Source: a virus (taxonomy: Duplodnaviria > Caudoviricetes). From it: a stretch of DNA of 64,000 bases. Shown here piece after piece: positions 3,306 to 26,248 of the stretch. The stretch is taken from positions 913-64,912 of IMG/VR virus record IMGVR_UViG_3300027804_000071. One strand, written 5' to 3'. The notes below the pieces were generated by a model that did not search any database, was not told the origin of the DNA, and saw only the letters and a program-made list of their open reading frames with translations. Position 1 is the first letter of the stretch. Each line of letters starts with the position of its first letter. Made by a program: the position numbers and the translations under genes.

Positions 3306-3330
3306 AAAAAGGGGGGTTTTGACACCCCCC
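3304..3330 (-). terminator. Intrinsic terminator between convergent genes
   Basis: GGGGGG-ttttgaca-CCCCCC hairpin with an A7 tract on + (U-tract on the minus strand), downstream of rusA. Confidence 0.65.
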
Positions 3331-3362
3331 TAAACCACTCTCACTTCAAGGAAACTACACGA

Positions 3363-3728: not shown

Positions 3729-3774
3729 TGTTACTACATAAATACAACAGGTGAAACTATTTTGGTATAACCTA

Positions 3775-3819
3775 TTGACATGACTTGCAACTGGTCATAA
3801 TATGGAGGCTCAACTGCTA
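3775..3819 (+). promoter_or_regulatory. sigma70-type promoter with TCAACTGCTA at predicted +1
   Basis: TTGACA (3775-3780), 17 bp, TAATAT (3798-3803); motif at 3810-3819. Confidence 0.75.
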
Positions 3820-3834
3820 GAAAAGGGGAAATCA

Positions 3835-3939
3835 ATGCGAATTATTGTCGGTTTAGTTACCGCTATTTTGTTGCCAGTAGCGATTGTCGTTGTGGCAATG
3901 CGGTGTGCAAAAGCTTTTGTTGAAAGGGGGATTGAGTGA
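3835..3939 (+). CDS. 34-aa single-pass hydrophobic peptide
   Basis: RBS AAGGGG; MRIIVGLVTAILLPVAIVVVAMRCAKAFVERGIE; GTGA overlap with the next gene. Below the ORF-track cutoff. Confidence 0.7.
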   Translation: MRIIVGLVTAILLPVAIVVVAMRCAKAFVERGIE

Positions 3940-4835
3940 AATTAACCAATAAGTATGGCATCCCACAGACGTTTATGAATGTCTTGGAACGCCCTACGTA
4001 TAGCAAAGGTAAGGCTAATATCTCAGCTACTCAGCTGTTGAATAGCCCAAAGATCGTTGCTTTGACCAAGAAGTTTGATGAGGAGTTGGAACAGGACGTG
4101 GCTGACATGATTTGGTCACTGTTTGGTTCAGCAATGCACAACATTCTTGAGCATGGCAAAGATGGCAATCATGTGGTGGAACAGCGTATCCACGTAGAGC
4201 ATGACGGTTGGCACATCTCAGGTGCTATTGACCTACAGATTGTGAATCCTGATGGCACGATTGATATTCGTGACTACAAGACTACATCTGCATGGGCAAT
4301 GATGAACGAGAAGATTGAGTGGGAACAGCAACTCAACATCTACGCATGGCTTATTGAGCGTGCCAAGAAGCAAACCGTTAGTTCTGTGGGTATCGTTGGT
4401 TTGATCCGTGATTGGAATCGCCGTGAGGCGGCTACGAAAGAGGGCTATCCAGAAGCTCCAGTCAAAGAAATCCCAATCAAACTGTGGACGTTTGACGAGC
4501 GTGAACAGTTTATCTCTAAAAGGGTGGCATTGCATAGTGCTTGTGATTTCGCCATGGAAACAGATGGCGAGTTACCTGACTGCACTCCGACAGAGATGTG
4601 GGAAAAGCCAACGGTTTGGGCTGTCAAGAAGGAAGGCAATATCAAAGCCAAGGCATTGTATGAGACTGAAGCCTTAGCAGAAGAGGCTGTAAGAGTCTTT
4701 TCTGAGAAGGATCCGAAGTCAAATTTCATCATAGAAGTAAGGCCAGGGGAGCGCACTCGTTGTGCAAACTTCTGTTCAGTTGCCCCATATTGCCAACAAT
4801 ATCGGGACTATTTAAATCTCAAGGAGGAAGTATGA
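3936..4835 (+). CDS. PD-(D/E)XK exonuclease (Cas4-like phage recombination nuclease)
   Basis: ISATQL, FGSAMHNILE, ISGAIDL..IRDYKTT, QLNIYAWL motifs; terminal Cys cluster RCANFCSVAPYC. Confidence 0.85.
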   Translation: MKLTNKYGIPQTFMNVLERPTYSKGKANISATQLLNSPKIVALTKKFDEELEQDVADMIWSLFGSAMHNILEHGKDGNHVVEQRIHVEHDGWHISGAIDLQIVNPDGTIDIRDYKTTSAWAMMNEKIEWEQQLNIYAWLIERAKKQTVSSVGIVGLIRDWNRREAATKEGYPEAPVKEIPIKLWTFDEREQFISKRVALHSACDFAMETDGELPDCTPTEMWEKPTVWAVKKEGNIKAKALYETEALAEEAVRVFSEKDPKSNFIIEVRPGERTRCANFCSVAPYCQQYRDYLNLKEEV

Positions 4836-4972
4836 AAAAGGTTATTTTGTGTTTATTTGTTGCAATGATTTCAACAAGCTCATTTGCAGCTATTAAGTGT
4901 GTTCCTAGTGGTGGCGGTACTTGCTGTTGGGACACAGTTCGTGACGGTCCATTTAAGCCAATTGGTTGCTGA
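4832..4972 (+). CDS. 46-aa exported Cys-rich peptide
   Basis: RBS GGAGG, ATG at 4832; signal peptide MKKVILCLFVAMISTSSFA followed by a mature part with 4 Cys. Confidence 0.65.
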   Translation: MKKVILCLFVAMISTSSFAAIKCVPSGGGTCCWDTVRDGPFKPIGC

Positions 4973-4973
4973 T

Positions 4974-5192
4974 ATGAGTTGTAAATTTGTTATTTGGGAT
5001 ACTTCCACAGGCATTTATGACGGAGCATATGCTGACAAAGATGTGGCTTTGGAAAGATATTTTGCTATGTTGGAAAACGACCCAAAGCGTGGATGGGTAT
5101 TAGCAGAAATTATTTACCCACAGGAGTTTAGGTTATCAGATGATAAGTTCCACGCAAAAGTAAGAACAAATCAAATTAAGGATTTCAAATGA
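4974..5192 (+). CDS. Hypothetical protein
   Basis: ORF packed between neighbouring genes; start chosen at ATG 4974. Confidence 0.55.
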   Translation: MSCKFVIWDTSTGIYDGAYADKDVALERYFAMLENDPKRGWVLAEIIYPQEFRLSDDKFHAKVRTNQIKDFK

Positions 5193-5920
5193 GTGTATAT
5201 AAAAAACTACAGGATGCACGTATTCAGTTACAGAATACAAAGCTTTCTAAATCAGGGAAAAACAAGTTTGCTGGGTATGAATACTTTGAATTGGGGGACT
5301 TTTTGCCTTCTATTCAGAATATCTGCCAAAAGGTAGGCTTGTGCGGTGTCGTGTCATTCAATGCTGACATGGCTTATCTGACCATCTATGACACAGACGG
5401 TGGCGACAGTAACTTTGTTACCTTCACATCCCCTATGTCATCGGCCGCCCTCAAGGGTTGCCATGATGTGCAGAACCTAGGTGCAGTTCAGACTTACCTA
5501 CGCCGTTATCTATGGACTAATGCTTTTGAGATTGTTGAGCATGATGCCTTGGATGCCACCATGGGTAATGAGAAAACAACTGTAACAGCTGTTACACCCA
5601 AACCAGTAATTAAAACTGTTAATGGTGAGCCTGTTGATAGTAACTTAAAACCAATCAAGCCTATCACTGGTCAAAAAGGTGAGTTCCAGATTGTTGCACC
5701 AGGAATCCCTGATTCAGAGCTAGACATTCCTCAATGGCTAGAGAACATCAAGCAAGCCGCTAGGGTTCTATTGGCTGTTGCTGATAGCGAAGAAGACGTT
5801 ATGCACATCTTCAAGAAGAACAAAGTTTTATTTGATGCAGTAAAAACCACCGATGCCGTGTTCTTCAAGGAACTTATGGCGTTATTCACAGAAGCAAAAA
5901 CACAACTAACTAAGGAGTAA
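5189..5920 (+). CDS. erf: ERF-family single-strand annealing protein
   Basis: KSGKNKFAGYEYFELGDFLP and QNLGAVQTYLRRY motifs; adjacent to the exonuclease. Confidence 0.85.
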   Translation: MSVYKKLQDARIQLQNTKLSKSGKNKFAGYEYFELGDFLPSIQNICQKVGLCGVVSFNADMAYLTIYDTDGGDSNFVTFTSPMSSAALKGCHDVQNLGAVQTYLRRYLWTNAFEIVEHDALDATMGNEKTTVTAVTPKPVIKTVNGEPVDSNLKPIKPITGQKGEFQIVAPGIPDSELDIPQWLENIKQAARVLLAVADSEEDVMHIFKKNKVLFDAVKTTDAVFFKELMALFTEAKTQLTKE

Positions 5921-13249: not shown

Positions 13250-14075
13250 CATCCGCATTGACGGTGGCACACAAGCCCGTCTTAAGTTAAATCAGGATGT
13301 GGTCAAGGACTACGCAGAAGCTATGCGTGAAGGTGCAGTATTTCCTCCAATCATTGTCTACCATGACGGCTCAGACTACTGGTTGGCTGATGGTTTTCAC
13401 AGATACTTTGCGACCAAGGCTAATGCAACTGCCTCAATTGATGCAGAAGTCCGCACAGGAACGCTAAGAGATGCCATCCTATTCTCATTCAGCGCCAACG
13501 ATCCAAGTAAGCGTGGCTTATCACCAACCTCTGAAGACTTGCGTAACATCATCCGTAACATGCTGTTGGATGAAGAGTGGAGTAAGTGGACTAACTCTGA
13601 GATTGCTCGCCATGTAGGCGTATCTAAGATGACTGTTGGCCGTATCAAGGCATCAATGACTGAACAGCCTAAAGAAGTCAGCGAAACTAAGAAATATACA
13701 GACAAAAACGGTAATGAAAAGACAGTCAATACCAAGAATTTAGGTAAACAAACACCTACAACAAAACCAGACTTATCTACCTATGATGAGAGAGACGACA
13801 TCATCAAAGAGCTAACTGACACGGTGAATTCATTGTCAGACGAGAACTCTAAGCTCAAGGATGCGATTGCTTTGGGTCAGTGGGATGCATCAGACATTGA
13901 AAAAATTGATGCAGAGGATACAATCAAAGACCTTCGTGAACAGGTCAAGATCTTTGAGATTGACAACAGGGCTTTGCGTGAAAGCAGAGATATGTTCCAA
14001 AACCGTAACGCTGAACTGATGAAAACCGTCAGCTCATTACAAAGAAAACTAAAACAATTTAAAGAGGAAGTATGA
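13227..14075 (+). CDS. ParB/Srx-like N-terminal domain protein with HTH and coiled coil
   Basis: GGTQAR, FPPIIVYHDGSDYWLADGFHRY and WTNSEIARHVGVSKMTVGR. Confidence 0.75.
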   Translation: MKKLNILNIRIDGGTQARLKLNQDVVKDYAEAMREGAVFPPIIVYHDGSDYWLADGFHRYFATKANATASIDAEVRTGTLRDAILFSFSANDPSKRGLSPTSEDLRNIIRNMLLDEEWSKWTNSEIARHVGVSKMTVGRIKASMTEQPKEVSETKKYTDKNGNEKTVNTKNLGKQTPTTKPDLSTYDERDDIIKELTDTVNSLSDENSKLKDAIALGQWDASDIEKIDAEDTIKDLREQVKIFEIDNRALRESRDMFQNRNAELMKTVSSLQRKLKQFKEEV

Positions 14076-14236
14076 AAGATTACTCAGAAATATTGATCAA
14101 GATGCAGATTGGTGTGAAAGAATTGCATGAGGCAATAAATGCAAAAGATTGGCTTGAAACAGACATTCAGTCCGATAATCTTGTGTTCTTGGCAAAACAA
14201 ATAAGAGATTCAGTAGCTGATTTACATACGAAATAA
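14072..14236 (+). CDS. Hypothetical 54-aa protein
   Basis: RBS GAGG; ATGA coupling; translated manually. Confidence 0.55.
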   Translation: MKDYSEILIKMQIGVKELHEAINAKDWLETDIQSDNLVFLAKQIRDSVADLHTK

Positions 14237-14288
14237 GTCTTCGGACTAGCCCAAGCCTAGAGGGAATCTAGGCAGTATAGGAATACAA

Positions 14289-15764
14289 ATGGAATTGCAA
14301 TTGCGTGAGCATCAGCAACATGTTATTGATGCGTTAAGACAGGGCTTCATCAACGGTCACAGAACTCAGTTACTCTATGCACCGACAGGCTTTGGTAAGA
14401 CAGAGGTAGCCATAGCCCTGATGAAAGCTACGGCAGAGAACTTCAAGCGTGCCTCAATGGTCTTAGACCGTATCGTTTTGGTAGATCAAACAAGCCAACG
14501 ACTAGACAAATACCGTATCAGGCATGGTGTATTTCAGTCTGGCCATTGGCGGTATGACAAGCGAGAGAAGCTACAGGTCTGTTCAGCTCAGACCCTGGAA
14601 CGCAGAGATAGTTTCCCAGAGATGGACTTGATGATTGTGGATGAGTGTCACATTGCTCGTAAACAGACCTCAGAATTCATCAAGAACAACCCCAATATCA
14701 AAGTTATAGGACTGACTGCTACCCCTTTTACCAAGGGATTGGGTGAGTTGTATACCAATGTAGTCTGTGGATCAACCACAAGCGACTTGGTTCAAGGCAA
14801 ATGGTTAGCCCCTCTGAAGGTATTCATTGCCAAAGAGATTGACATGACAGGTGCAAAGAAGGTTGCTGGTGAGTGGTCAGGTGACGAAGTTACTGAGCGC
14901 GGTATGAAGCTAACAGGTGACATTGTTCAGGAATGGATTAAAAAGACTCATGAAGTGTTCGGTAGACCACGCAAGACCATTGTCTTCTGTGCGGGTGTAG
15001 CCCATGGTGCGGACTTGGTTAAGCAGTTTGCAGAGCATGGCTATAACTTTGTATCAATCAGCTACAAGGATGATGATGAGTTCAAAAAGGCTGCCATCGA
15101 AGACTTTGCCAAGCCAGACACAGAAATCCACGGTTTGATTGCTACCGACATCTTAACTCGTGGCTTTGATGTATCAGATGTAATGATCGGTGTATCGGCT
15201 AGACCATTCAGCAAGTCATTATCTTCCCATGTGCAACAGATGGGGCGAGTGATGCGGTCACACCCTAATAAAGAGTTCGGTTTATGGCTTGACCATAGCG
15301 GTAACTACCTCAGATTCCGTGATGATTGGGATGAATTGTATGAGGATGGGGTCAAAGAGCTAGATAGTTCTGGTGAAAAGGCACACCGTGAGCCAACAGA
15401 GAAGAAGAAAAAGGAATCCAAGTGTCCTAAATGCAGTCTGTTATGGCCAAAAGGCACAGATACTTGCCCTTCTTGTGGCTATGTGAGAGAGAAAAGGAAC
15501 GAAGTTTCTGCCGTTGCAGGTGAAATGGTTGAGTTCTTGGCATCCGAGACCGTGGTCAAAGAGACCAAGCAAGACTTCTATTCACAGTTACTGTTCATTG
15601 CCAATGAGAGAAGTTATAACCCACATTGGGCTAGTCATAAGTATCGAGAACGGTTCGGAGTCTGGCCTAAGGGACTTGTAGATAAACCAATACCACCATC
15701 AATTACGACCATGAAATGGATAAGAAGTAAGCAGATTGCATGGGCTAAGAGGAAAGTTAAATGA
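14289..15764 (+). CDS. SF2 DEAD/DEAH-box helicase with C-terminal Zn finger
   Basis: APTGFGKT, DECH, TAT, QQMGRVMR motifs; CPKC...CPSC. Confidence 0.92.
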   Translation: MELQLREHQQHVIDALRQGFINGHRTQLLYAPTGFGKTEVAIALMKATAENFKRASMVLDRIVLVDQTSQRLDKYRIRHGVFQSGHWRYDKREKLQVCSAQTLERRDSFPEMDLMIVDECHIARKQTSEFIKNNPNIKVIGLTATPFTKGLGELYTNVVCGSTTSDLVQGKWLAPLKVFIAKEIDMTGAKKVAGEWSGDEVTERGMKLTGDIVQEWIKKTHEVFGRPRKTIVFCAGVAHGADLVKQFAEHGYNFVSISYKDDDEFKKAAIEDFAKPDTEIHGLIATDILTRGFDVSDVMIGVSARPFSKSLSSHVQQMGRVMRSHPNKEFGLWLDHSGNYLRFRDDWDELYEDGVKELDSSGEKAHREPTEKKKKESKCPKCSLLWPKGTDTCPSCGYVREKRNEVSAVAGEMVEFLASETVVKETKQDFYSQLLFIANERSYNPHWASHKYRERFGVWPKGLVDKPIPPSITTMKWIRSKQIAWAKRKVK

Positions 15765-15934
15765 GTTCAAAAACAATTAAATTGAAAGTTGATGGGAAAG
15801 TTGTATATCAGTTTGACGTTACTGAAACCCAATTAAATCTGGCAAAAAAGCTTGGAGTAAAAGAAAAAGATTTCATAACAGAGCTTGCAAAAGAACATTT
15901 AAAAGAACATAAGGCAAAAAAAGATGAGATTTGA
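15761..15934 (+). CDS. 57-aa protein resembling the scaffold C-terminal helix motif
   Basis: MSSKTIKLKVDGKVVYQFDVTETQLNLAKKLGVKEKDFITELAK...; ATGA coupling to the helicase; below track cutoff. Confidence 0.6.
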   Translation: MSSKTIKLKVDGKVVYQFDVTETQLNLAKKLGVKEKDFITELAKEHLKEHKAKKDEI

Positions 15935-16751
15935 AGATTTTGCCAAGCTACATGGGCTGATTATCAGAGACATCACACCCTTTAAGTGGATGTCTACCCC
16001 TACAGAAGATAAGCCACGATCAACTAACGGCAGATACAAATACATGGGTGATGTTGGTTGGGTGCAGAATTGGGCGACCATGGATAAACCAGCCATTTGG
16101 AAACCCGATGAAAAGTTTACGCCTCCACCCGAATTCTTAAAGCAAAGGGATTCCGCCCTGAATGACCGTCAGAAGTTAGCTGACAAGGCATCAGCAAAAG
16201 CGGGATGGATCATGCACCAGACCGCCAACGCTACCCATGAATACCTGGCGAAAAAGGGATTCCCCGAAGAGGAGGGTAATGTCTGGCGGACGGATACTGA
16301 TGAATTGTTAGTGATACCCATGCGTATCTCTGGGAAACTTGTGGGGTGTCAGCTCATCAACACACAGGGGGAGAAGAAGTTCTTGTATGGTCAGCAGACC
16401 AAGGGGGCATCCTTCTGCATTGATGCAAAGGGAACACCTATTTTCTGTGAGGGCTACGCTACGGGGTTGTCTGTCCGTTCCATAATGAAAGCGAACAAAC
16501 TCCGCTACAGTATCCATATTTGCTTTAGTGCAAGCAACCTCAAGGAAGTAGCAAGGCACATCCCCAACGGGATCGTTGTCGCTGATAATGACCCCAACGG
16601 TATCGGTGAGACTGTTGCCAAGGAAACAGGCAAACCGTATTGGATTTCCGACACAGTTGGGGAGGATTTCAATGACTATCACCTCAGAGTAGGACTCTTC
16701 AAGGCGAGCCAGAGCCTTAAACAGATTTTTCTGCATAAGCCAAACTCATAA
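15924..16751 (+). CDS. Toprim-domain DNA primase (plasmid/phage type)
   Basis: YLAKKG, LVIPM...GCQLI..GEKKFLYG, FCEGYATG and VADND motifs. Confidence 0.85.
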   Translation: MRFEDFAKLHGLIIRDITPFKWMSTPTEDKPRSTNGRYKYMGDVGWVQNWATMDKPAIWKPDEKFTPPPEFLKQRDSALNDRQKLADKASAKAGWIMHQTANATHEYLAKKGFPEEEGNVWRTDTDELLVIPMRISGKLVGCQLINTQGEKKFLYGQQTKGASFCIDAKGTPIFCEGYATGLSVRSIMKANKLRYSIHICFSASNLKEVARHIPNGIVVADNDPNGIGETVAKETGKPYWISDTVGEDFNDYHLRVGLFKASQSLKQIFLHKPNS

Positions 16752-17001
16752 GACGAATGAATTTGGCCTCAATCTGCCTAGCTCTTTCACGACCCATGCC
16801 ATGCGGTTTACCACTATCTGCTAGTGTTGCACCTTTGGCACGGGTTTTTAACATTTTCCAATAAGCATCACGGCAATCCTTCGGACTGCGGTAAAACATT
16901 TGATCAAATTCTGATTTTGTTGGGAAATCTACCAAACGGTAGGGAGTGTCCCCTACCACCGTGTAAACAGGGACTCTTCCGTTGCATTTACTTAGATTCA
17001 T
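16717..17001 (-). CDS. Stand-alone sigma70 region-4-like HTH protein
   Basis: TLADSGKPHGMGRERARQIEAKFIRLM resembles sigma70 region 4.2 (TLEEVG...TRERIRQIEAKALRKL). Confidence 0.7.
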   Translation of the reverse strand: MNLSKCNGRVPVYTVVGDTPYRLVDFPTKSEFDQMFYRSPKDCRDAYWKMLKTRAKGATLADSGKPHGMGRERARQIEAKFIRLMSLAYAEKSV

Positions 17002-17002
17002 C

Positions 17003-17176
17003 TCAGTCCCTTGGGTCAATTTCACAAACATCAGTCGTTTCCCAATCGGTAGCCACCTGAATATCATCTTCATCAAGGTAGTCTATTGCCATATCGCAAG
17101 CCTCATCTGCATCACTTGCATCCACGGTCACCACGACCTTAGCCGTGGTGGTCATTGTTATTTCATATCGTCTCAT
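17003..17176 (-). CDS. Small acidic protein (DpnD/PcfM-like pattern)
   Basis: MRRYEITMTTTAKVVVTVDASDADEACDMA; translated manually. Confidence 0.55.
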   Translation of the reverse strand: MRRYEITMTTTAKVVVTVDASDADEACDMAIDYLDEDDIQVATDWETTDVCEIDPRD

Positions 17177-17436
17177 AGTAATCTTAATTCCTCTCTGGTC
17201 ATTGATTGCATCATGTTTTGTTCTTCTTCAAACATATCGTTCATGCCGTTGTCGCCTAGCGTGTGGATATTTATGTGAAAGACCGCATCAGGGTCATACG
17301 GCTCATCATCAAGACAAAATACATTGATGTCGTGATGTTCAAACCCATGCCACCAATCGCATTGGTCAAGGATTTCATCCTTATACTTTTTGATCGTGGC
17401 AAGGACTAATTTCTTATCAACTAAGTAGCTTTTCAT
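17173..17436 (-). CDS. Hypothetical early protein
   Basis: Start MKSYLV after a GAGGG RBS; coupled overlaps. Confidence 0.55.
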   Translation of the reverse strand: MKSYLVDKKLVLATIKKYKDEILDQCDWWHGFEHHDINVFCLDDEPYDPDAVFHINIHTLGDNGMNDMFEEEQNMMQSMTREELRLL

Positions 17437-17600
17437 GGGTTCACCCTCTGGAGTAGTTCCTTCAAGTAACCCAAGCTGATGCCGTGTTGGTCTGCATACC
17501 AAGATAAACATTCCTCTTGGTTCACAAAGCCACCATCTTTGAAATAGTTAGCCTTGACCACGGTCAGCATCTCTCTTACTTCTTGTAGGTCATTCATCAT
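17433..17600 (-). CDS. Hypothetical early protein
   Basis: RBS GAGGAGG; 55 aa; translated manually. Confidence 0.5.
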   Translation of the reverse strand: MMNDLQEVREMLTVVKANYFKDGGFVNQEECLSWYADQHGISLGYLKELLQRVNP

Positions 17601-17781
17601 TGACCTCCTCAATCAAACCCCTGTTAATCATCTCTTCCTGTAGGTCGTTGTCATACCAATTCTCATAGCCAATAAAGCCCTTACGCATAATAAATGCGAA
17701 GTAATCATCCTTATCGTCACGGTCATACCAACTGTTCAAATCATCATCAATCAATAGGTCAATCATCTCGTTGCGGTTCAT
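17590..17781 (-). CDS. Hypothetical acidic early protein
   Basis: Coupled ORF with RBS AAGGAG. Confidence 0.6.
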   Translation of the reverse strand: MNRNEMIDLLIDDDLNSWYDRDDKDDYFAFIMRKGFIGYENWYDNDLQEEMINRGLIEEVNDE

Positions 17782-18041
17782 GCCGTCTCCTTTTTAACCA
17801 TATCAATCCAAAGCTCAATCGTTTCCCAATTGATGCCAATACTAGAATCTGAATACTTTTTCATGTATTTGAGAACATTTAGAGCTTGCTCGTGAGTCAG
17901 TTCATCACCGTTACTCGCACCATAGATGTCTGATATATGCCACCAATCAGCATACCAATCAGGGCTTGTAAGCATCAAAATATCTTCAGCTTGCGGAATA
18001 GCCTGACCCTCTGGCACATCTATCTCAATCATCACCTTCAT
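17778..18041 (-). CDS. Hypothetical early protein
   Basis: WHISDI...LT.EQA..VL...D..IGINW.TI pattern, common in phages. Confidence 0.6.
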   Translation of the reverse strand: MKVMIEIDVPEGQAIPQAEDILMLTSPDWYADWWHISDIYGASNGDELTHEQALNVLKYMKKYSDSSIGINWETIELWIDMVKKETA

Positions 18042-18238
18042 ACATCCTCCTTCTGTCTATCCCATGCCATACCAGATACCTCATAAAGTTTATTTTGAAA
18101 ATCACGCAAGGCATCTATCTGGTCAGCCTCAAAAAACATATTGGTCATTTGGTGGGTCGTCTCCACCCAACGAGCAATAAACTGTTCCTTAGTTAATTTC
18201 ACAGGTTTAAAAAACCCATCAAAGGTCTTTGTTTCCAT
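18038..18238 (-). CDS. Hypothetical early protein
   Basis: RBS TTGGAGG; start METK. Confidence 0.6.
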   Translation of the reverse strand: METKTFDGFFKPVKLTKEQFIARWVETTHQMTNMFFEADQIDALRDFQNKLYEVSGMAWDRQKEDV

Positions 18239-18252
18239 AGTTCCTCCAAGAA

Positions 18253-18307
18253 CGGCCAACATTAGCCCACAAACCCACTCCGCAGAATGGGCTTGTAGAT
18301 AATGCTA
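18253..18307 (-). ncRNA. Structured intergenic RNA element, copy A
   Basis: UAGCAUU/AAUGUUG outer stem, internal loop, 9-bp inner stem; homologous to 20283-20336. Confidence 0.65.
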
Positions 18308-18457
18308 CTTACTGAAACTTCTCATCCAAGCCAAGAGAATGGTCTTCGCCTCCTTACGGTCAAGACCGAATTCAGCCTCTAGGTAAGGTGATGCAAGCAA
18401 CATATTGGTCTCGCCAGAGTCCCGTAGGTCATTGAGGTAGTCAAAGTATTGGCTCAT
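18305..18457 (-). CDS. Hypothetical 50-aa protein
   Basis: MSQYFDYLNDLRDSGETNMLLASPYL...WMRSFSK; RBS GGAGG. Confidence 0.65.
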   Translation of the reverse strand: MSQYFDYLNDLRDSGETNMLLASPYLEAEFGLDRKEAKTILLAWMRSFSK

Positions 18458-18458
18458 C

Positions 18459-19046
18459 TCAATCCTCCCACAACTCGTAAGCATTAAGAATATCCATCTC
18501 GTTCAAGATGTCTGATGGGATACCTTTGAGGCTTTCTCTGGTGACCCGACCCTCGTCATCAGTCTTAATGTCATAGGTGTCGTCCTGACCATCCATCCAT
18601 AACCCACAGAAGGCACATCCGCCCTCGTGGTAATAGGCACGGACTGTAAAGCCTAGCTCTTCCAATTTGGCATAGGCATCTGTCGGAGGTGACCAAGCAG
18701 AATCAAAGTAAACAAACATATCGTTATCGCCACCTTGAGCCTTGTTATCCCTGTCGTCACTATGACCAATGTCCCACTTAGTCCCCCAATTCTGTATTCG
18801 CCAATCCCACCATGCATCCTCACGGATGGTCGGTTCATTAGCCAATGCTTTAGCCTTTTCCTCTTCGGTCTTGGCAAAATCTGCCATGATGTTCGGGAAT
18901 GTCTGAGGCACAGGTGTAACTGTGTAATCAGGTTCAGGCACAAAGGTCGCCAAGAAATTACCAGAATCCCAAGCCTCTTTGGCTTTTTTGATCATCTCTG
19001 GGTCTTCGTGAGTTAAATATAGGTTGTTATCGCACCAATTAGGCAT
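18459..19046 (-). CDS. DUF1281/YubB (Api92-like) ferredoxin-like domain protein
   Basis: MPNWCDN...WWDWRIQNWGTKWD...FDSAWSPP...YHEGG. Confidence 0.75.
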   Translation of the reverse strand: MPNWCDNNLYLTHEDPEMIKKAKEAWDSGNFLATFVPEPDYTVTPVPQTFPNIMADFAKTEEEKAKALANEPTIREDAWWDWRIQNWGTKWDIGHSDDRDNKAQGGDNDMFVYFDSAWSPPTDAYAKLEELGFTVRAYYHEGGCAFCGLWMDGQDDTYDIKTDDEGRVTRESLKGIPSDILNEMDILNAYELWED

Positions 19047-19194
19047 TTTCATTCTCCTTGAGTTTATAAAAGTTAAATACAGATACATCTTGAAACTTCA
19101 CACAATCATTTAGGTATTGGATTAGTGCATCCACAGCCTCTTCCTCGTTCTCTACTTCTATTTCATCTTGAAAAGTAACCTCAAATTTAGGCAT
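19039..19194 (-). CDS. 51-aa acidic protein (array member)
   Basis: MPKFEVTFQDEIEVENEEEAVDAL; ATGCCTAA overlaps at both ends. Confidence 0.6.
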   Translation of the reverse strand: MPKFEVTFQDEIEVENEEEAVDALIQYLNDCVKFQDVSVFNFYKLKENENA

Positions 19195-19342
19195 TTTCAA
19201 TCTCCATAGTTTCAGCTACAAAAGGGTCGTTCAAATCATCATTACTAAACATTCCCCATGCGAGGTCTTCTGCATCTTTTTCATCAAAAGCCTCTACTTC
19301 ATAGACAACGCATCTCTCAATTACGACCTGATATTTAGGCAT
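19187..19342 (-). CDS. 51-aa acidic protein (DpnD/PcfM-like pattern)
   Basis: MPKYQVVIERCVVYEVEAFDEKDAEDLAWGMF. Confidence 0.6.
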   Translation of the reverse strand: MPKYQVVIERCVVYEVEAFDEKDAEDLAWGMFSNDDLNDPFVAETMEIENA

Positions 19343-19511
19343 CTTTTTCCTCCTCAATTAAGTCAGCCTCTTCGCAAAGAAATTCAGGATGTTCGGGTGT
19401 TATCTCGCCATCCTTATACATACCCCATGCGACCATTTCAGCATCTCTGGGGTCTTCCGCCTCTACTTCTACATAGATTGCAGTAGTCATTAGCACACTC
19501 CATTTAGGCAT
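19335..19511 (-). CDS. 58-aa acidic protein (paralog of 19187-19342)
   Basis: MPKWSVLMTTAIYVEVEAEDPRDAEMVAWGMY. Confidence 0.6.
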   Translation of the reverse strand: MPKWSVLMTTAIYVEVEAEDPRDAEMVAWGMYKDGEITPEHPEFLCEEADLIEEEKDA

Positions 19512-19704
19512 TTTCATTTATCCCTTCTGTGATTTGTTTAACCCCACACACCGCCAAAATGATTTCACGGCAACTTGAATCAACTCCAAAATCTTTACAA
19601 ATGTCTGCCCAATCATGAGGAATAACCTCAGGGTTCAGTCTTACCCATCCACCCTGTGGCAATACCTCATAACCGTTTTCTACCAATTCTTCTTCGGTAA
19701 TCAT
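19504..19704 (-). CDS. Hypothetical early protein
   Basis: RBS AAGGGGG; ends ENA* overlapping the next ATG. Confidence 0.6.
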   Translation of the reverse strand: MITEEELVENGYEVLPQGGWVRLNPEVIPHDWADICKDFGVDSSCREIILAVCGVKQITEGINENA

Positions 19705-19845
19705 AATTTCCCCCTTGCCTGTAGCTCTTCTTCAATGTCATAAACTAGCATGATGTCTTTAACACCCAAGCCCCCAAAATGTAGCTCTTTCAATAGTGTT
19801 CTTAACTGCCTGACGGTCATGTTTTTAACATTCATCAGTCACCTC

Positions 19846-20070
19846 CTACCAATCACAGAGGACGGTCTCGCCCTCTTCGTTGCGAACCTCAGACCCCATA
19901 GATTCAGACCAAGACCATGCCATATCAATAATTCGGTCATTGGGTTCGCTAGACTCCACTAGATCAATAGAACTGCCATCATTCATGGCAATCTCATTAG
20001 CCTCCTCTGGCGACTCTGCAAGCACTTCATACTCAACAATCGCATAAACATAAACCGTGTATCTATTCAT
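19846..20070 (-). CDS. Acidic protein (DpnD/PcfM-like pattern)
   Basis: MNRYTVYVYAIVEYEVLAESPEEANEIA. Confidence 0.55.
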   Translation of the reverse strand: MNRYTVYVYAIVEYEVLAESPEEANEIAMNDGSSIDLVESSEPNDRIIDMAWSWSESMGSEVRNEEGETVLCDW

Positions 20071-20266
20071 AATTCACCTCCGTAATCGTGAAATCATCCC
20101 CAATAACTGCCCCAACTTGCAACGGCTCACCATCCATGTAATGGAAAATGCTTTCGTCCTCAAGGTCTTCGACCTCATCCCATGACCCAAGGGCAATTTT
20201 TACATCAAAGATATTTTCGGGGTCTTCTGACCAATGACCCTCGCACCATACCGTTTTGTATTTCAT
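20063..20266 (-). CDS. Hypothetical early protein
   Basis: RBS TTGGAGGT. Confidence 0.6.
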   Translation of the reverse strand: MKYKTVWCEGHWSEDPENIFDVKIALGSWDEVEDLEDESIFHYMDGEPLQVGAVIGDDFTITEVNYE

Positions 20267-20282
20267 ATAACCTCCAAGTTAT

Positions 20283-20336
20283 CGGCTAACATTAGCCCAA
20301 TAGGTCACTCAGCGAATGACCTATTAGAAAATGCTA
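20283..20336 (-). ncRNA. Structured intergenic RNA element, copy B
   Basis: Same flanks and loop as copy A; 9-bp inner stem differs in sequence but remains paired. Confidence 0.65.
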
Positions 20337-20600
20337 CCCCCTTAATAATGGTAAAACTTGGTCTCTGTCGTGACTCGTGAACAATGAGCCTCCCTCGTTG
20401 CCTTCATCATCACATGATGGAAAAATCCAAATGCCACTATCTAAAAGCATGGTCACAGGGCGACCAGACCATCCCATATTTTCTGACTCTTCATCTGTTA
20501 AATAGCGAACCTTGACTATTTTGCGACCAAGTAACAGGTCAGAGGCGACCTTATCCCAATGCTTAGTTAATTCTTTGTCGTTCATTTCGTGCAGTTTCAT
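20334..20600 (-). CDS. Hypothetical early protein
   Basis: LLGRKIVKVRYLT.EE...W...IFPSCDDEGNEGG, a common phage family. Confidence 0.65.
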   Translation of the reverse strand: MKLHEMNDKELTKHWDKVASDLLLGRKIVKVRYLTDEESENMGWSGRPVTMLLDSGIWIFPSCDDEGNEGGSLFTSHDRDQVLPLLRG

Positions 20601-21101
20601 TTATGCCACCTTTTTAAAATCGTTAAAAAATACAGACCCATCAGCTAAATAATCGTATTCGTTGAGGGTTAGAGTCTCGTCAATGTTGTTATCGCTATAA
20701 AAATCCTCTACATCACGGCTAACATAGTTAAGGAATGACTCTATAGCTTGCTGATACGCATACATGGAATCTCCTGTAGCCTTAAAACTGTCGTGAAACT
20801 CTTCCCAAAGTGAGCAGTCAGCACAGTAGCCTGTTGGCATATGGTCACGGCTAAAATCTTTTAGCTTTAACCCACGGAAATTGTGCTTGCCTAGGTCGGT
20901 TTTAATAAAAGCATGGCGGGTATCGCCAACAGACCAATTAAGCATTGAACCGCCAAAATGACCAATAAAAGCCTTGGCTGATTCCATATTTTCATCAAAC
21001 CAAGGATATTCCCAAGTGGAACGAAAGACCTCCCTCGCCTTTTCCTTGGCTTCCTCTTCTAATTCATCAAAACTAAAAACCTGAATTTCTACCTTTTCCA
21101 T
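20601..21101 (-). CDS. Hypothetical early protein
   Basis: RBS TTGGAGGT; VFSFDELEEEAKEKARE...NEYDYLADG. Confidence 0.65.
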   Translation of the reverse strand: MEKVEIQVFSFDELEEEAKEKAREVFRSTWEYPWFDENMESAKAFIGHFGGSMLNWSVGDTRHAFIKTDLGKHNFRGLKLKDFSRDHMPTGYCADCSLWEEFHDSFKATGDSMYAYQQAIESFLNYVSRDVEDFYSDNNIDETLTLNEYDYLADGSVFFNDFKKVA

Positions 21102-21188
21102 ATAACCTCCAAAATTACGCACCCACCCTAAAGATTAACCACCACCCTGACCCGTTGCGTATAGGTCTGGGGGTCGGTTTTTTGATCG

Positions 21189-21290
21189 CTAGCTGTTAGA
21201 GATAAACGACCAAGCAAACAAAAAAGCAAGCCCACCCATCACGGCAAGACTAGCGACCCACTCGAGCAACATAACAACGAACCGCCTCAC
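21189..21290 (-). CDS. 33-aa hydrophobic peptide
   Basis: GTG start in a GTGA overlap; MRRFVVMLLEWVASLAVMGGLAFLFAWSFISNS. Confidence 0.5.
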   Translation of the reverse strand: MRRFVVMLLEWVASLAVMGGLAFLFAWSFISNS

Positions 21291-21475
21291 GATTGCACCT
21301 GAGAGACAGAGACACCATAGACGGCTAGAAACTTAATAGCCTCTTTGTCCATCTTCACGGCTTTAGACATCAGCCCCGACAATTCGGCAGATGTTCTGGA
21401 CGGGTTGCCCTGTTCCAGATGGTGACGAGCCACGGCACGAGGCACGGGGCGAGAATTAACATAAAATTGAATCAT
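21287..21475 (-). CDS. Hypothetical early protein
   Basis: Coupled ORF. Confidence 0.55.
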   Translation of the reverse strand: MIQFYVNSRPVPRAVARHHLEQGNPSRTSAELSGLMSKAVKMDKEAIKFLAVYGVSVSQVQS

Positions 21476-21648
21476 CTTTCAAACTCCACCAAAGTATTCA
21501 AAAGGTAGTCTCTGACTGAGTAGCCTGTGACCTCTGGGTGAGTCTCTGCGAGTGCTTTGTATTCCATAAAAAACTCAGCCGAGTCCTTATCGGAAAACTT
21601 AGCAATTGCCTCGCTTGTTTCGGTAGTGTGGCGATATACATAAAACAT
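21472..21648 (-). CDS. Hypothetical early protein
   Basis: RBS TGGAGGT just 3' of the hammerhead cleavage site. Confidence 0.6.
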   Translation of the reverse strand: MFYVYRHTTETSEAIAKFSDKDSAEFFMEYKALAETHPEVTGYSVRDYLLNTLVEFER

Positions 21649-21665
21649 AAAAACCTCCATTTAAT

Positions 21666-21718
21666 GACTAAGACCGTCCTGAGACGGTTTCGGCTAATAA
21701 AGCCCTCATCAGTTAGCC
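21666..21718 (-). ncRNA. Type I hammerhead ribozyme
   Basis: Minus strand: GGCUAA-CUGAUGA-G-GGCU(uuauu)AGCC-GAAA-CCGUC(ucag)GACGG-UC^-UUAGUC; full core, three stems, GUC triplet. Confidence 0.85.
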
Positions 21719-21904
21719 TTGAATCGCTTTTTGCATCTCCTTGGCGAGTTCTATCCACGAGTCAGCATTGATTAAACCCATTGAAGGATATTGCTCAGGG
21801 GTGGACTCTGCGACCTGAGCCGTGTAACGGTTTACCGCCTCCAAAATCATCAGAGGGGCTAAAGGGTGAGAGTCTAGAAGTGCTTGGACTGTTTTAGGGT
21901 TCAT
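21713..21904 (-). CDS. Hypothetical early protein
   Basis: Its stop codon lies in hammerhead stem I. Confidence 0.6.
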   Translation of the reverse strand: MNPKTVQALLDSHPLAPLMILEAVNRYTAQVAESTPEQYPSMGLINADSWIELAKEMQKAIQG

Positions 21905-22332
21905 ACTGTCGCCTCTTTGCTGATGTAGTAGGCGAGAGTCTGCCCCTTTTTGTTGTATTCACCCTGTAAAGAGAGACCCAAAGCCCTAGCGATTCTTTTC
22001 ATTGAATCAAGACCGCAAGCACCGTCAAGACAGACCGACCCATCTGGGCGAATGGTCAAGCCATAGAATGAAGGGTTTATATCCTCGGCAATCTGTAGCC
22101 ACGAAGTAGAGCCATAAGGCACTTTTGGCAAATCCTTAACGAGGGCTTTCAATTCGTCCTGATATTCACACTCTAAGAAATCCCCGAAGACCTTCCCAGT
22201 CATGTCATAGCCACCACCTGAGCAACGATACCGCTTGCCAGAGTTGCGAGAATCAAGACGGCAGATGTTGTAGCCGTAAGTGTCACGACCACGAGAGACA
22301 GACCAAGACAAAGCTAAACGATTGATAAACAT
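21901..22332 (-). CDS. Hypothetical early protein
   Basis: RBS TGGAGGT; YRCSGGGYDMTG...LDGACG, a common phage family. Confidence 0.65.
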   Translation of the reverse strand: MFINRLALSWSVSRGRDTYGYNICRLDSRNSGKRYRCSGGGYDMTGKVFGDFLECEYQDELKALVKDLPKVPYGSTSWLQIAEDINPSFYGLTIRPDGSVCLDGACGLDSMKRIARALGLSLQGEYNKKGQTLAYYISKEATV

Positions 22333-22348
22333 TTTTCAGACCTCCAGA

Positions 22349-22543
22349 TTAAAAAGTAAAACCAACAAAAACAGAACGAGAACCACGGACAAATTTTTCG
22401 TGATTGATGTCGTCAAACTTGTAAATAGAATAAGAGCGAGACTCACGGTCATAGTCACCACGAACCCAAACAGGCGAAGACTCAGAATCTTTCAGCTTGA
22501 TAAATTCCCCCTTCGGTATTGCTTTAATTGTCATTTGTTCCAT
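22349..22543 (-). CDS. First gene of the leftward early operon (hypothetical)
   Basis: RBS AGGAG abuts the TCAACTGCTA motif; GEFIKL...VWVRGDYDR..YS. Confidence 0.65.
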   Translation of the reverse strand: MEQMTIKAIPKGEFIKLKDSESSPVWVRGDYDRESRSYSIYKFDDINHEKFVRGSRSVFVGFTF

Positions 22544-22602
22544 TGTGAAAACTCCTAGCAGTTGATTGATGCGAATAGTCACCTATTGACTAATCTCGCC
22601 TG

Positions 22603-22650
22603 ATTTTCATTGCTTGGGGGGTTGCTTGTCAATACCCTAATAAAAATAAA
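22603..22650 (-). promoter_or_regulatory. Leftward sigma70 early promoter
   Basis: TTGACA on minus (22632-22627) with an AT-rich UP-like tract; -10 weak (GAAAAT, 18-bp spacer). Confidence 0.55.
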
Positions 22651-22808
22651 TTTACAGGCTTATAGATAAAGGCTTGCGAGAGAGTTTCCGAGGCCGTTCT
22701 AGTGATCAAAAACATAAAAGGCGGATAGATTAGCCGAAGGCGAACAGTCCATTATTGATAGAGTCACATAGAGACAGACACACACCAGAGAGACCAATCT
22801 TGCGAGAG

Positions 22809-22837
22809 TTGCAACACTCTTCAGACCGTCCTATTCT
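22809..22837 (+). promoter_or_regulatory. Rightward sigma70 promoter for packaging genes
   Basis: TTGCAA, 17 bp, TATTCT. Confidence 0.55.
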
Positions 22838-22868
22838 CTAGGGTATAAAAATACCCTGTTTATACCCT

Positions 22869-23816
22869 ATGACCAAAAAACCGAAACTAACTCGCAAGCA
22901 GATAACCGAAGGACTGCAACAGATGCCGATTGAGACCATTCTCTTAGGTGCGAACAATGCGAAGGAAAAGAGACTCACCGCCTCACAGATTAAGTTTGCC
23001 GAGGAAATCGCCAAGGGTAAGACCAAGGCAGAGGCATACAGACAGAGCAGACCGAACGGTAAGAAAAGCAATGCAAAACCCTCCACAGCATCACGAAAGG
23101 GTCAAGAGCTTTCAAAGGTGGACGCAATACAGACGCAAATAGAGGCTTTTAAAGTGGCTTTAGAAGCTCAGAAATATCAAACCCCCCTTCACTTGAGGGC
23201 TTTGACAATCCATAAACTCACAGAAAAGGTGCTAGACCCTAACTGCCCACCCGCCCAACAGATAAAAGCCATGGAGTTATTGGGTAAGATTACCGAGGTC
23301 GCACTCTTCACCGAGAGACGAGAGGTCATTCAGCACAACACGAGCGACCAGATGAAAGAGAAGCTCCTCTCTTCTCTTCGCCTGGCGATTTCTTCTCAGG
23401 GTGTAACAGATGTTACAGAGACAGACCCAGAGTCATTACTGGCAGAGCTGACCGCCAAGCCGTTAGATATGACCATAGACTCGGATTATGTCGCTGATGA
23501 TGATGTATCTCTGGCACAAGAGACCAATGAACCAGAGGCGGAGGGGTTGAACGATCTGGAATCTGCCGACCCTACCACTCCCCGACCCCCTTTTTTACAA
23601 AATTTGCAGGCGTCACCTATGCATAGTAATCCACACACTCAATCTCCTAAAAATACCATGCCCTTGCAACCCATTGATTCTTCAGAAGTTTCATGTGTAA
23701 CACCTGTTACATCTAGGGTAAACCCTAATGTTACAGAGGGGGAGGGGGGTATAAATATACCTGTCGGTGATTTGGAGTCAGAATTACGGACACCCCCCGT
23801 CAACGTTTCTAAATAA
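22869..23816 (+). CDS. terS: Terminase small subunit (with long acidic low-complexity tail)
   Basis: LTASQIKFAEEIAKGKTKAEAYRQS...ASRKGQELSK HTH; upstream of terL. Confidence 0.65.
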   Translation: MTKKPKLTRKQITEGLQQMPIETILLGANNAKEKRLTASQIKFAEEIAKGKTKAEAYRQSRPNGKKSNAKPSTASRKGQELSKVDAIQTQIEAFKVALEAQKYQTPLHLRALTIHKLTEKVLDPNCPPAQQIKAMELLGKITEVALFTERREVIQHNTSDQMKEKLLSSLRLAISSQGVTDVTETDPESLLAELTAKPLDMTIDSDYVADDDVSLAQETNEPEAEGLNDLESADPTTPRPPFLQNLQASPMHSNPHTQSPKNTMPLQPIDSSEVSCVTPVTSRVNPNVTEGEGGINIPVGDLESELRTPPVNVSK

Positions 23817-23833
23817 AAGCGTGGGGGGTATAT

Positions 23834-24406
23834 ATTTTAAATTTTAACGAACTTACTCCTAGGCTTATTGCTAAGGCTAATGGGGAGAAAAGATACCAAG
23901 GACAGCCATGTATCAATGGCCATATTGGTGTTAGATATGTTCGTAATCACGATTGTGTAGATTGTAGAAATATATCTGGCAGTTTAAAAGCGAGAAGAAA
24001 ACGCGAGTTTTTTGGTCGGAAGGTTGGGCGACCAAGAAAATACCCAGAACTTATTGGCCCGCCTAAACCAAAGAGAGTTGTATTTAACCCAGTGACAGTA
24101 GAAGAGAAGTGGATTGTTAGGTCAAGGGTTGCTACAAAGCCAAAGAAAAGCAAAAGAAAGAATTTGTCGGTTGAGTACTATAAAACATTGATAGTTACGC
24201 ACTGCCCGCTTTTAGGTATTGAATTGAGTTATGAAAAGTTTGAAGGCAATACGCCAAACAATTATGCAACTTTAGATCGTATTGACTCAACGCTTGGGTA
24301 TGAAGAAGGCAACGTACAGATTATTTCTTTTAGAGCAAATACGTTGAAAAGTAATGCGACTTTAGAAGAATTGAAGTTATTAGTAAAAAATTGGGAGGGT
24401 CTATGA
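23834..24406 (+). CDS. HNH endonuclease (N-terminal Zn motif upstream of the track start at 24092; start codon uncertain)
   Basis: CPLLG...TLDRIDSTLGYEEGNVQIISFRANTLK core; in-frame upstream RYQGQPCINGH..RY..NHDCVDC. Confidence 0.7.
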   Translation: MLNFNELTPRLIAKANGEKRYQGQPCINGHIGVRYVRNHDCVDCRNISGSLKARRKREFFGRKVGRPRKYPELIGPPKPKRVVFNPVTVEEKWIVRSRVATKPKKSKRKNLSVEYYKTLIVTHCPLLGIELSYEKFEGNTPNNYATLDRIDSTLGYEEGNVQIISFRANTLKSNATLEELKLLVKNWEGL

Positions 24407-24530
24407 AAATTTGGACTTACGAAGAGATGTTAAAAGCTATACAGTCGATGACGGAGGAGGAGAAGCACAAGTTGTTGACGATGTTATTGCGTGATGAGGC
24501 AGTGATGATTATGGCAAAGAGAGAGCCAGA

Positions 24531-24755
24531 ATGACTCCTGCACAAAAAGAGATCTTTATGATCATTGATGAATGGTGGAAGATGTATGGCTTTGGGCCGA
24601 CTGTGGACGATATTATGAGAATGACTGGTGAGAGAAGTCGGAGTAATACGGTTCGGAAGATGAAGGCGTTAGTTGCGATTGGGGTATGCAGAGCGACTCC
24701 GAAACGAGCGCGATCAATTCGGCCAGTGGGTATTCGTGTTCGGAGCGTTGAGTGA
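24531..24755 (+). CDS. LexA-like DNA-binding domain protein (no peptidase domain)
   Basis: MTPAQKEIFMIIDEWW..YGFGPTVDDI......S.....KMKAL...G...R.RSIR matches the LexA N-terminal wHTH. Confidence 0.7.
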   Translation: MTPAQKEIFMIIDEWWKMYGFGPTVDDIMRMTGERSRSNTVRKMKALVAIGVCRATPKRARSIRPVGIRVRSVE

Positions 24756-26248
24756 ACGATAAAGAAATTAACAAGATCATTGATAGTCTTCCAGAGGCGG
24801 ACAGAGCTGAGTTATTAACCATGGCTCAGGCTTATATGGAATCTGTGACCAGGGAGAAGGCAACAGTTAGTTTCATGGAGTTTGTTAAGGTCATGTGGCC
24901 TGGGTTCATTCATGGACGTCACCATGCTTTGATGGCAAAGAAGTTCGAGGATATAGCGAACGGCAAGATTAAAAGATTAATTATTAATATGCCGCCGCGA
25001 CATACGAAGTCAGAGTTTGCCAGTTATATGCTACCAGCTTGGTTTCTAGGCAGATACCCTAATAAGAAGATCATTCAGTGTTCGAATACAGCTGAGTTGG
25101 CTGTAGGCTTTGGTCGTAAAGTACGTAACTTAGTAGACGGAGAACAGTATGCAAAAGTCTTCCCCAATGTCCATCTTAGGTCTGACTCTAAGGCTGCTGG
25201 TCGCTGGAGTACTAATGGTAACGGGGAGTATTTTGCTATTGGTGTTGGCGGTACTGTTACGGGTAAAGGTGCGGATCTACTCATTATTGATGACCCACAT
25301 TCTGAACAAGAGGCAGCGTTAGCAGCTAGTAACCCTGAGGTGTACGACAAGGTTTATGAGTGGTATGGCTCTGGTCCGAGACAGCGTTTGCAGCCAGGCG
25401 GTGCGATTGTGATCGTTATGACCCGTTGGGGTAAACGCGATTTGACGGGTCGTATTTTGCAAAGCGCGGTTGAAAGGGATGGAGATGAATGGGACATTAT
25501 TGAATTACCAGCGATATTGCCGACTGAAAAGCCGTTATGGCCAGAGTTCTGGTCAATGGATGAGTTGGTCAAACTCAGAAATGAATTGCCCGTTTCTAAA
25601 TGGTCAGCCCAATACCAACAATCTCCTACATCTGAAGCGGGTGCAATTGTTAAACGAGAGTGGTGGCAAATGTGGGAACAGGAACAGCCGCCGCAATGCG
25701 AGTTCATCATCCAGTCATGGGATACAGCGTTTACTAAGAATGAACGGTCAGACTATTCTGCTTGTACGACATGGGGCGTCTTTTATAAAGACGAGAATCC
25801 TGATGATGCCAATGTGATTTTATTAGACGCTTTTAAGGAACGACTAGAGTTTCCAGAGCTAAAAGAGCGAGCTTTACAGTATTACAAGGAATGGGAACCT
25901 GATGCGTTCATTGTTGAGGCAAAAGCCTCTGGTGCGCCATTGATCTTTGAATTAAGAAGAATGGGTATTCCAGTACAAGAATTTACACCAACCCGTGGTA
26001 ATGATAAGATTTCGAGAGTAAACTCCGTATCAGACTTATTTGCATCTGGCAAGATATGGTGTCCACGTACTAGATGGGCGGAAGAGGTGATGGAAGAGAT
26101 GGCTGCTTTCCCTAATTCAGATCACGATGACTTGGTTGACTCATCAACACAAGCGCTGATTAGGTTTAGAAAAGGCGGTTTTTTAAGATTACAGACGGAT
26201 GAAGTAGACGATCCTGTTCACTTCAGACGCAAAGTTGCATATTACTAA
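24752..26248 (+). CDS. terL: Terminase large subunit
   Basis: INMPPRHTKS Walker A, LLIIDDP Walker B, SWDTA nuclease motif, HDDLVDS. Confidence 0.95.
   Translation: MNDKEINKIIDSLPEADRAELLTMAQAYMESVTREKATVSFMEFVKVMWPGFIHGRHHALMAKKFEDIANGKIKRLIINMPPRHTKSEFASYMLPAWFLGRYPNKKIIQCSNTAELAVGFGRKVRNLVDGEQYAKVFPNVHLRSDSKAAGRWSTNGNGEYFAIGVGGTVTGKGADLLIIDDPHSEQEAALAASNPEVYDKVYEWYGSGPRQRLQPGGAIVIVMTRWGKRDLTGRILQSAVERDGDEWDIIELPAILPTEKPLWPEFWSMDELVKLRNELPVSKWSAQYQQSPTSEAGAIVKREWWQMWEQEQPPQCEFIIQSWDTAFTKNERSDYSACTTWGVFYKDENPDDANVILLDAFKERLEFPELKERALQYYKEWEPDAFIVEAKASGAPLIFELRRMGIPVQEFTPTRGNDKISRVNSVSDLFASGKIWCPRTRWAEEVMEEMAAFPNSDHDDLVDSSTQALIRFRKGGFLRLQTDEVDDPVHFRRKVAYY

Follow-up and report, generated by a model that had tools for sequence, protein, structure and literature searches.

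A covarying intercistronic hairpin that alternates with hammerhead ribozymes in early operons of freshwater phages: a candidate RNase III-type processing site

RNase III signals are known from the early mRNA of phage T7 (R0.3, R0.5, R1, R1.1 and R1.3) and also from the early mRNA of phage SP82 and from phage lambda. The hairpin of ompA is reportedly a 5′-terminal stem-loop that stabilizes its mRNA, and the PeSL cassettes of T4-type phages are said to be mobile regulatory elements composed of an early promoter and a terminator-like stem-loop. Arrays of hammerhead ribozymes in phage operons have been known since 2011, and their purpose has, to our knowledge, never been tested. These clustered hammerheads flank genes in phage and prophage operons, and the role proposed for them is the cutting of long transcripts into gene-length mRNAs (Perreault et al. 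2011, PMC3088659). Here, we describe an intercistronic hairpin of an uncultured freshwater phage, present in two copies (A and B) on the minus strand of a 64,000-nucleotide stretch of DNA (the window; positions 913 to 64,912, and thus nearly all, of the 64.9-kb IMG/VR virus record IMGVR_UViG_3300027804_000071). The motif represents a previously undescribed family of RNAs from abundant freshwater relatives of HTVC023P-type pelagiphages, its structure is selected on the sense strand, as RNA, and relatives carry either the hairpin or a hammerhead at the same type of gene junction. We read it, with a probability of roughly 0.45, as a processing site for a host RNase III-type enzyme in which a latent hairpin would cap the new 5′ end.

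Both copies are about 57 nucleotides (nt) long and lie between genes of the early operon. The initial annotation had delimited them from the UAG stop of the upstream gene to just before the next ribosome-binding site (RBS), and these coordinates were confirmed (Table 1). Its further observations, that the inner stems differ with pairing kept and that a competing hairpin GGCUA-AUGU-URGCC is possible in both copies, were borne out as well: within the 9-base-pair (bp) inner segments four pairs differ between A and B in a compensated manner, in addition to one change from G-C to G.U, and the competing hairpin is present in both. A mini-stem of 5-6 bp around the RBS also covaries between the two copies. 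For the gene downstream of copy B, the start at 18262 given by the open reading frame (ORF) finder is an in-frame AUG within the motif, and the ATG given in Table 1 is the likely true start. The ORFs upstream and downstream of copy B (18236-18484, minus strand) share a frame, with the UAG as the only stop across the hairpin. Stop-codon read-through was considered and rejected, since copy A has an in-frame UAA (GGC UAA) and the shared frame is therefore not conserved; it is probably a coincidence.

RNAfold places each copy in one nearly continuous helix of 23 bp, which is interrupted by a single bulged nucleotide and closed by a loop of 3-4 nt. What had been taken for a conserved internal loop (WUCU/GGGCU) and a conserved apical loop (UUC..GAG) is mostly base-paired: UCU pairs with GGG (U.G, C-G, U.G) and UUC with GAG. 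The folds are far more stable than those of shuffled sequences (z = −4.9 and −5.1), and none of 200 shuffles was as good for either copy. In an alignment of 28 copies (A4), 95.3% of 637 cells are paired, compared with 35-45% in slid registers, and 17 of the 23 pairs have changed on both sides. A model-independent run with MAFFT and RNAalifold arrived at this helix too; 11 of its 18 pairs are compensated. The covariation includes the outer stem that contains the stop codon (UA/CG, AU/GC, AU/UA). Over the 28 copies the helix comprises 18-23 standard pairs (mean 21.7), and the only unpaired positions are one bulge and a loop of 2-7 nt, variable in length and sequence. G.U or U.G pairs are kept at five helix positions, one of them invariant and the others present in 18-21 of the 28 copies. 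The helix centre is marked by invariant C-G and U.G pairs, by a position that is either U.G or C.A, and by the bulge.

Scored with a covariance model, the reverse strand reaches 21 bits and the sense strand 78. Together with the conserved G.U pairs, this shows that the structure acts as RNA of the sense strand, and it contradicts an element that works at the level of DNA, be it a promoter (ordinary or of the N4 hairpin type), a terminator, or a cassette for recombination without a role in RNA. The promoter of N4-type virion RNA polymerases is a stem of 5-7 bp with a 3-nt loop on the template DNA strand. Such a promoter came into view through a giant ORF (58236-63998, plus strand) with a weak match, in its N-terminal part only, to phrog_2206, the N4 virion RNA polymerase family (E = 5e-15); moreover, the cassettes have a modular look that resembles the PeSLs of T4-type phages. 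However, the polymerase domain itself gave no match in this ORF, on the template strand the conserved G.U pairs would turn into A.C mismatches, and the compensatory changes reveal selection for pairing. An element of DNA is thus very unlikely, and the N4-type hairpin promoter in particular was rejected in view of the sense-strand specificity and the weak polymerase match. A scan of the window scored neither a sigma70-like promoter nor a U-tract terminator within the motif. An intrinsic terminator, in which a U tract adjoins a G+C-rich hairpin, was rejected too, as no U tract follows either hairpin and the terminator scan lists neither. The giant ORF itself runs off the record end and may continue into ORF 3-3305 (plus strand) at the record start.

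Members of the family were gathered by sequence patterns, and part of the conservation at the helix base stems from this way of collection. A first scan of viral contigs with the conserved 15-mer GGGCTAATGTTRGCC returned 57 matches. This 15-mer is not diagnostic alone; most of its matches are unrelated, some being ordinary terminators, and about a dozen carry the whole motif with differing inner stems. In four unrelated viral contigs (L006, L039, L046 and L054) the same 15-mer, GGGCTAATGTTAGCC, forms a short hairpin with a T run and, behind it, AGGAG; such hairpins look like ordinary intrinsic terminators and are not the motif. A second scan, which used the inner stem of copy B, added copies with quite different outer stems and 3′ parts. 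Eleven copies were combined into the covariance model R1, whose only two sites in the window are copies A and B (E about 1e-14; scores in Table 1), and its next matches are the reverse strands of the same two copies at 21 and 17 bits. The description of the motif as unrecognized and covarying held: Rfam gave no match at gathering scores over the whole window, and searches at E up to 10 of positions 14000-26000 and of positions 20240-20360 (121 nt) returned only noise resembling microRNAs or snoRNAs. The 5-kb region had no DNA match among cultured phages, where the 86-nt motif gave only short matches at chance level, and the inner-stem pattern had five matches in bacterial genomes, all unrelated.

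The placement is strictly intercistronic. In all 30 unique copies the upstream ORF stops in the helix base, 6-15 nt before the inner stem, and a strong Shine-Dalgarno sequence (SD) with a start codon follows 47-73 nt further on. Near-complete relatives have 0-2 copies, on the same strand and spaced by 0.6-2.3 kb. Among 80 loci selected by terminase similarity alone the motif was present in five; it is a minority cassette within this phage group.

A placement like that of a hammerhead had been noted from the start, and relatives indeed carry either element at the same type of junction. The operon of the window has, in addition to copies A and B, a type I hammerhead that was read by eye. Its stem I (GGCUAA/UUAGUC) includes the UAA stop of the upstream gene. 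The core reads CUGAUGA, stem II opens with an additional G, GAAA comes next, and a distance of about 11 nt separates the GUC site from the RBS, ahead of which the ribozyme ends. Rfam aligns only the core. A strict pattern search in the fetched relatives yielded 27 unique type I hammerheads at intercistronic sites, up to three of them in the 5.5-kb locus L167 (at 2990-5552) and others in L038, L107 and further relatives. At Rfam gathering scores, no hammerhead was matched in the 14 relative loci scanned, which included these three; minimal phage hammerheads would thus escape routine annotation. The hammerheads of relatives are usually followed by the leader AACUGCUAGGAG, and the same leader follows many hairpin copies. 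The exchange is seen most directly upstream of one orthologous gene (MGLDMYL...YQSSW), which has the hairpin ahead of it in six loci (L113, L155, L156, L162, L170 and L171) and a hammerhead in two (L101 and L104). This swap at an orthologous junction points to cutting. The product of this gene (MGLDMYL...WRKAN...YQSSW, about 145 amino acids) is a conserved early protein, and the gene always lies directly 3′ of a processing cassette (L101, L104, L113, L155, L156 and L170).

A possible new self-cleaving class was the leading proposal of the initial annotation. The motif adjoins a hammerhead, has identical placement and is exchangeable with one, it matches no Rfam family, and it has two alternative conserved folds. 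A self-cleaving RNA independent of protein might accordingly be built from the alternative fold, consisting of the inner hairpin, a small hairpin and a freed 5′ strand, and have replaced hammerheads; we consider this scarcely credible. All small ribozymes known to us need a conserved unpaired core, a multi-helix junction or a pseudoknot. The motif, in contrast, is a near-perfect two-turn helix in which only the bulge and the variable loop are unpaired, a conserved pseudoknot partner or multi-helix junction is absent, and the inner and small hairpins are joined by 1-2 nt. It is the missing conserved unpaired core that makes a new ribozyme class a most improbable replacement of the hammerhead. 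The initial annotation had seen no fit to hammerhead, HDV-like, twister or pistol topologies, and no Rfam ribozyme model matched even at E up to 10. A hammerhead has CUGANGA and GAAA strands around a three-helix junction and is cleaved at a UH site; it was rejected because neither the two copies nor the family alignment contains this core and no hammerhead model matched. Twister, twister-sister, pistol, hatchet, HDV-like and hairpin ribozymes were rejected for lack of a match at the gathering score or at E up to 10 and because the loops are variable. An RNase P-like minihelix with a 3′ GCC(A/G) was rejected as well, since the wider family does not conserve the GCC.

The small hairpin is the second conserved feature of the motif. 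The 3′ arm of the outer stem doubles as its 5′ arm, which makes the long helix and the small hairpin mutually exclusive. It begins one nucleotide past the midpoint of the long helix, and does so in nine different sequence versions; the sequence is identical in both copies of one genome and different between phages. RNA that starts at alignment column 44 (20298 in copy A and 18268 in copy B), which is the geometric centre of the long helix when a 2-nt stagger is allowed, begins in all 28 copies with a hairpin that leaves 0-1 nucleotides unpaired at the 5′ end. Shuffling of the downstream half only gave a combined p of 1.5e-7 for this hairpin. The 3′ products of the 27 hammerheads, in contrast, have a 5′-terminal hairpin in no case (mean minimum free energy −0.6 kcal/mol).

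An idealized substrate of Escherichia coli RNase III is a 22-bp helix, two A-form turns with about 11 bp to either side of the target, that is cut at its centre; where the target has bulges or mismatches, cutting of a single strand is favoured and stabilizing 3′ hairpins remain (PMC3867540). The motif has 23 model pairs. The initial annotation had listed an RNase III-type site among its options, and it is this option that the helix length of about 22 bp, the central distortion and the hairpin that starts at the centre fit best; cleavage is a prediction. An RNase III or double-stranded-RNA-binding domain was looked for among the phage proteins and none was found, for which reason the enzyme would be that of the host.

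According to this reading, the motif is a cassette in host-transcribed early mRNA that comprises a stop codon, a two-turn hairpin, a latent hairpin and a leader with RBS. Host RNase III would recognize the two helical turns and cut them in or close to the middle, possibly on the 3′ strand only; in every copy this part of the helix contains clustered wobble pairs, a mismatch or a bulge. The upstream message would keep its stop codon and, if cut single-stranded, also the inner hairpin of 12-15 bp as a 3′ cap. The cut would free the 3′ arm of the outer stem, which could then fold into the small hairpin, and the downstream message would start with a 5′ stem-loop that may shield its 5′-monophosphate end from RNase E-type decay. 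The cassette would thereby do the job of the hammerheads at the same junctions, the conversion of a 6-kb early transcript into shorter mRNAs. Decay by RNase E depends on the 5′ end, and we infer from this dependence that hammerhead products, which have 5′-OH ends, would need no cap.

Several points weigh against an RNase III-type site. The proximal-box rules of the E. coli enzyme ask for A-U or U-A at position 2 and exclude G-C and C-G at positions 2 and 4, and a C-G pair beside the cleavage site can block cutting but not binding (PMC3867540). The motif has near-invariant A-U pairs 3-4 bp apical of the centre and an invariant C-G pair beside it, which by these rules can block cutting, although the E. 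coli rules may not be those of the host. The sequence conservation at the helix base exceeds what RNase III would need, in part owing to the collection by sequence patterns. In about five further copies (types L155, L159, L162, L164 and L171) the outer stem is weak, with 4 bp, and the helix reaches only about 14-18 bp, with the small hairpin kept. The identity of the enzyme, the cut position and the stabilizing role, like cleavage itself, are inferred from structure and placement, and the RNase III of the host may differ in its rules from that of E. coli. Finally, the small hairpin would be explained equally well by a ribosome on the stop codon.

This last point leads to an explanation without any cut, in which the hairpin is a decay barrier or insulator: the terminating ribosome would melt the outer stem, the 3′ arm would refold into the small hairpin, and this would alter access to the next RBS or favour re-initiation across the hairpin base (translational coupling). 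In nearly all copies the stop (UAG, UGA or UAA) is part of the covarying outer stem and 5-8 nt away from the start of the inner stem, a distance that a terminating ribosome would unwind, and when the 5′ arm is masked the small hairpin appears in the minimum-energy fold of nearly all copies. Masking also lowers the mean cost of opening the SD from 3.5 to 2.2 kcal/mol, with a drop of more than 1 kcal/mol in 14 of 30 copies, and in one sub-family (L149, L151, L153 and L167) formation of the long helix allows the freed UCCUG to pair with the SD. However, the effect on the SD is small, is confounded by the removal of upstream sequence, and is absent in many copies, including L019, L156, L166 and copy B of the window (3.4 to 2.8 kcal/mol); an SD-occlusion switch was rejected because the effect in the energy test is small and inconsistent. 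Most neighbouring genes of the operon are coupled by simple overlaps, and such neighbours need no 57-nt device. A pure barrier, in turn, needs neither the two-turn length nor a hairpin that starts at the midpoint, and the exchange with hammerheads points to cutting. We therefore consider ribosome-driven refolding possible but somewhat unlikely.

Binding of a protein would be a third way to account for a conserved hairpin, either for processive antitermination of the HK022 put or lambda nut kind, with host RNA polymerase as its target, over the 6-kb operon or as an operator to which a translational repressor or a phage nuclease binds. Within a genome the small-hairpin sequence is shared and between phages it differs, which is reminiscent of boxB and its cognate N proteins. 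One or two copies per genome, in one orientation in the early operon, as well as the conserved wobble pairs and bulge, would also suit a protein-binding site. On the other hand, no candidate gene for a partner was identified, the copies are in the middle of the operon and away from the promoter, and one would not expect a self-cleaving ribozyme to take the place of an antiterminator at one and the same junction. The put and nut RNAs are stem-loops close to the promoter that bind RNA polymerase or N protein and thereby suppress terminators. On balance, a protein-binding site is decidedly doubtful, and the RNase III-type site remains the reading that we prefer.

The terminase of the phage shares 53-59% identity with its counterparts in phage 023Pt_psg01 and in the Pelagibacter phages HTVC027P and HTVC023P. 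Both copies of the motif lie in a minus-strand block of about 25 tiny, tightly packed genes (about 22560 to 16300) that is headed by a sigma70-like promoter and, judged from its sequence, would be transcribed into one polycistronic early mRNA. The leader between this promoter and the first early gene (Table 1) also follows hammerheads and hairpin cassettes in relatives, and mRNAs started at the promoter and processed mRNAs may therefore share a 5′ end. Within the block, four consecutive tiny genes (19040-19520, minus strand) share the overlapping junction ATGCCTAA, in which the previous stop is 5 nt after the next start, with near-identical GAAAATG or AAAGATG upstream. One relative has a strong match (L038:986-1100, plus strand; 88.9 bits) to the Rfam family Betaproteobacteria-1 RNA (RF02932), which may hint at a betaproteobacterial host.

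Table 1. Positions, in window coordinates, of the two hairpin copies and of related features of the early operon.
Feature	Position	Strand	Remarks
Copy A, extent	UAG 20336-20334 through GCC 20286-20284	-	
Copy A, long hairpin	20287..20336	-	22/23 pairs, 3-nt loop; 78.2 bits
Copy A, small hairpin GGCUA-AUGU-UAGCC	20284..20297	-	helix midpoint / predicted new 5′ end 20298
Copy A, upstream ORF	20334-20600	-	its stop is the UAG at the 5′ base of copy A
Copy A, RBS and start	GGAGG 20275-20271, ATG 20266-20264	-	downstream gene 20063-20266
Copy B, extent	UAG 18307-18305 through GCC 18256-18254	-	
Copy B, long hairpin	18257..18307	-	23/23 pairs, bulged C at 18265, 4-nt loop; 77.9 bits
Copy B, small hairpin GGCUA-AUGU-UGGCC	18254..18267	-	helix midpoint / predicted new 5′ end 18268
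Copy B, upstream ORF	18305-18484	-	its stop is the UAG at the 5′ base of copy B
Copy B, RBS and start	GGAGG 18247-18243, ATG 18238-18236	-	start likely true; downstream gene ends 18038
Type I hammerhead, same operon	21667..21717	-	read by eye; RAGATH-1-hammerhead core 18 bits, cut-off 56
Sigma70-like promoter TTGACA-18-GAAAAT	22603..22632	-	heads small-gene block
Leader AACTGCTAGGAG	22563-22552	-	after sigma70-like promoter, before first early gene

A hairpin that is predicted to depend on a protein and a ribozyme apparently serve as interchangeable parts at the same gene junction and with the same leader. Their interchange is a natural experiment on mRNA ends, half-lives and protein output. 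If it is true that the latent 5′ hairpin caps the RNase III product, the cassette would be a compact, built-in answer to the vulnerability of 5′-monophosphate ends, and the role as a cap would explain why the ribozyme cassettes, with their 5′-OH ends, are without such a hairpin. Synthetic operons are another place where the cassette could find use, as a small insulator part.

Among the known systems, the RNase III sites of T7 are likewise intercistronic hairpins of about two turns in a phage early operon transcribed by the host, with several related copies per genome and a distortion of the helix near the target, and their cutting yields hairpin-capped mRNAs, which is what we predict here. In contrast to the T7 sites, the motif is a different sequence family with an almost perfect helix that includes the upstream stop codon, its cleavage is a prediction, and it encodes a second hairpin that starts at the helix midpoint and can form only after the outer stem has opened. 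With the clustered hammerheads it shares the stop codon in the closing helix, the end just before leader and RBS, the same operons and the same orthologous gene; unlike them, it is without the CUGANGA/GAAA core or a three-way junction and would need a protein nuclease, and its predicted 3′ product has a 5′ hairpin. Similar to the ompA stabilizer, the predicted new 5′ end would consist of a hairpin preceded by no more than one unpaired nucleotide; here, however, the hairpin is latent and would form only after cleavage or passage of a ribosome, and its stabilizing role is putative. Like PeSLs, the motif is a short, modular, intergenic stem-loop cassette among small early genes that has been shuffled between relatives, but it differs from them in having neither a scored promoter nor a U tract.

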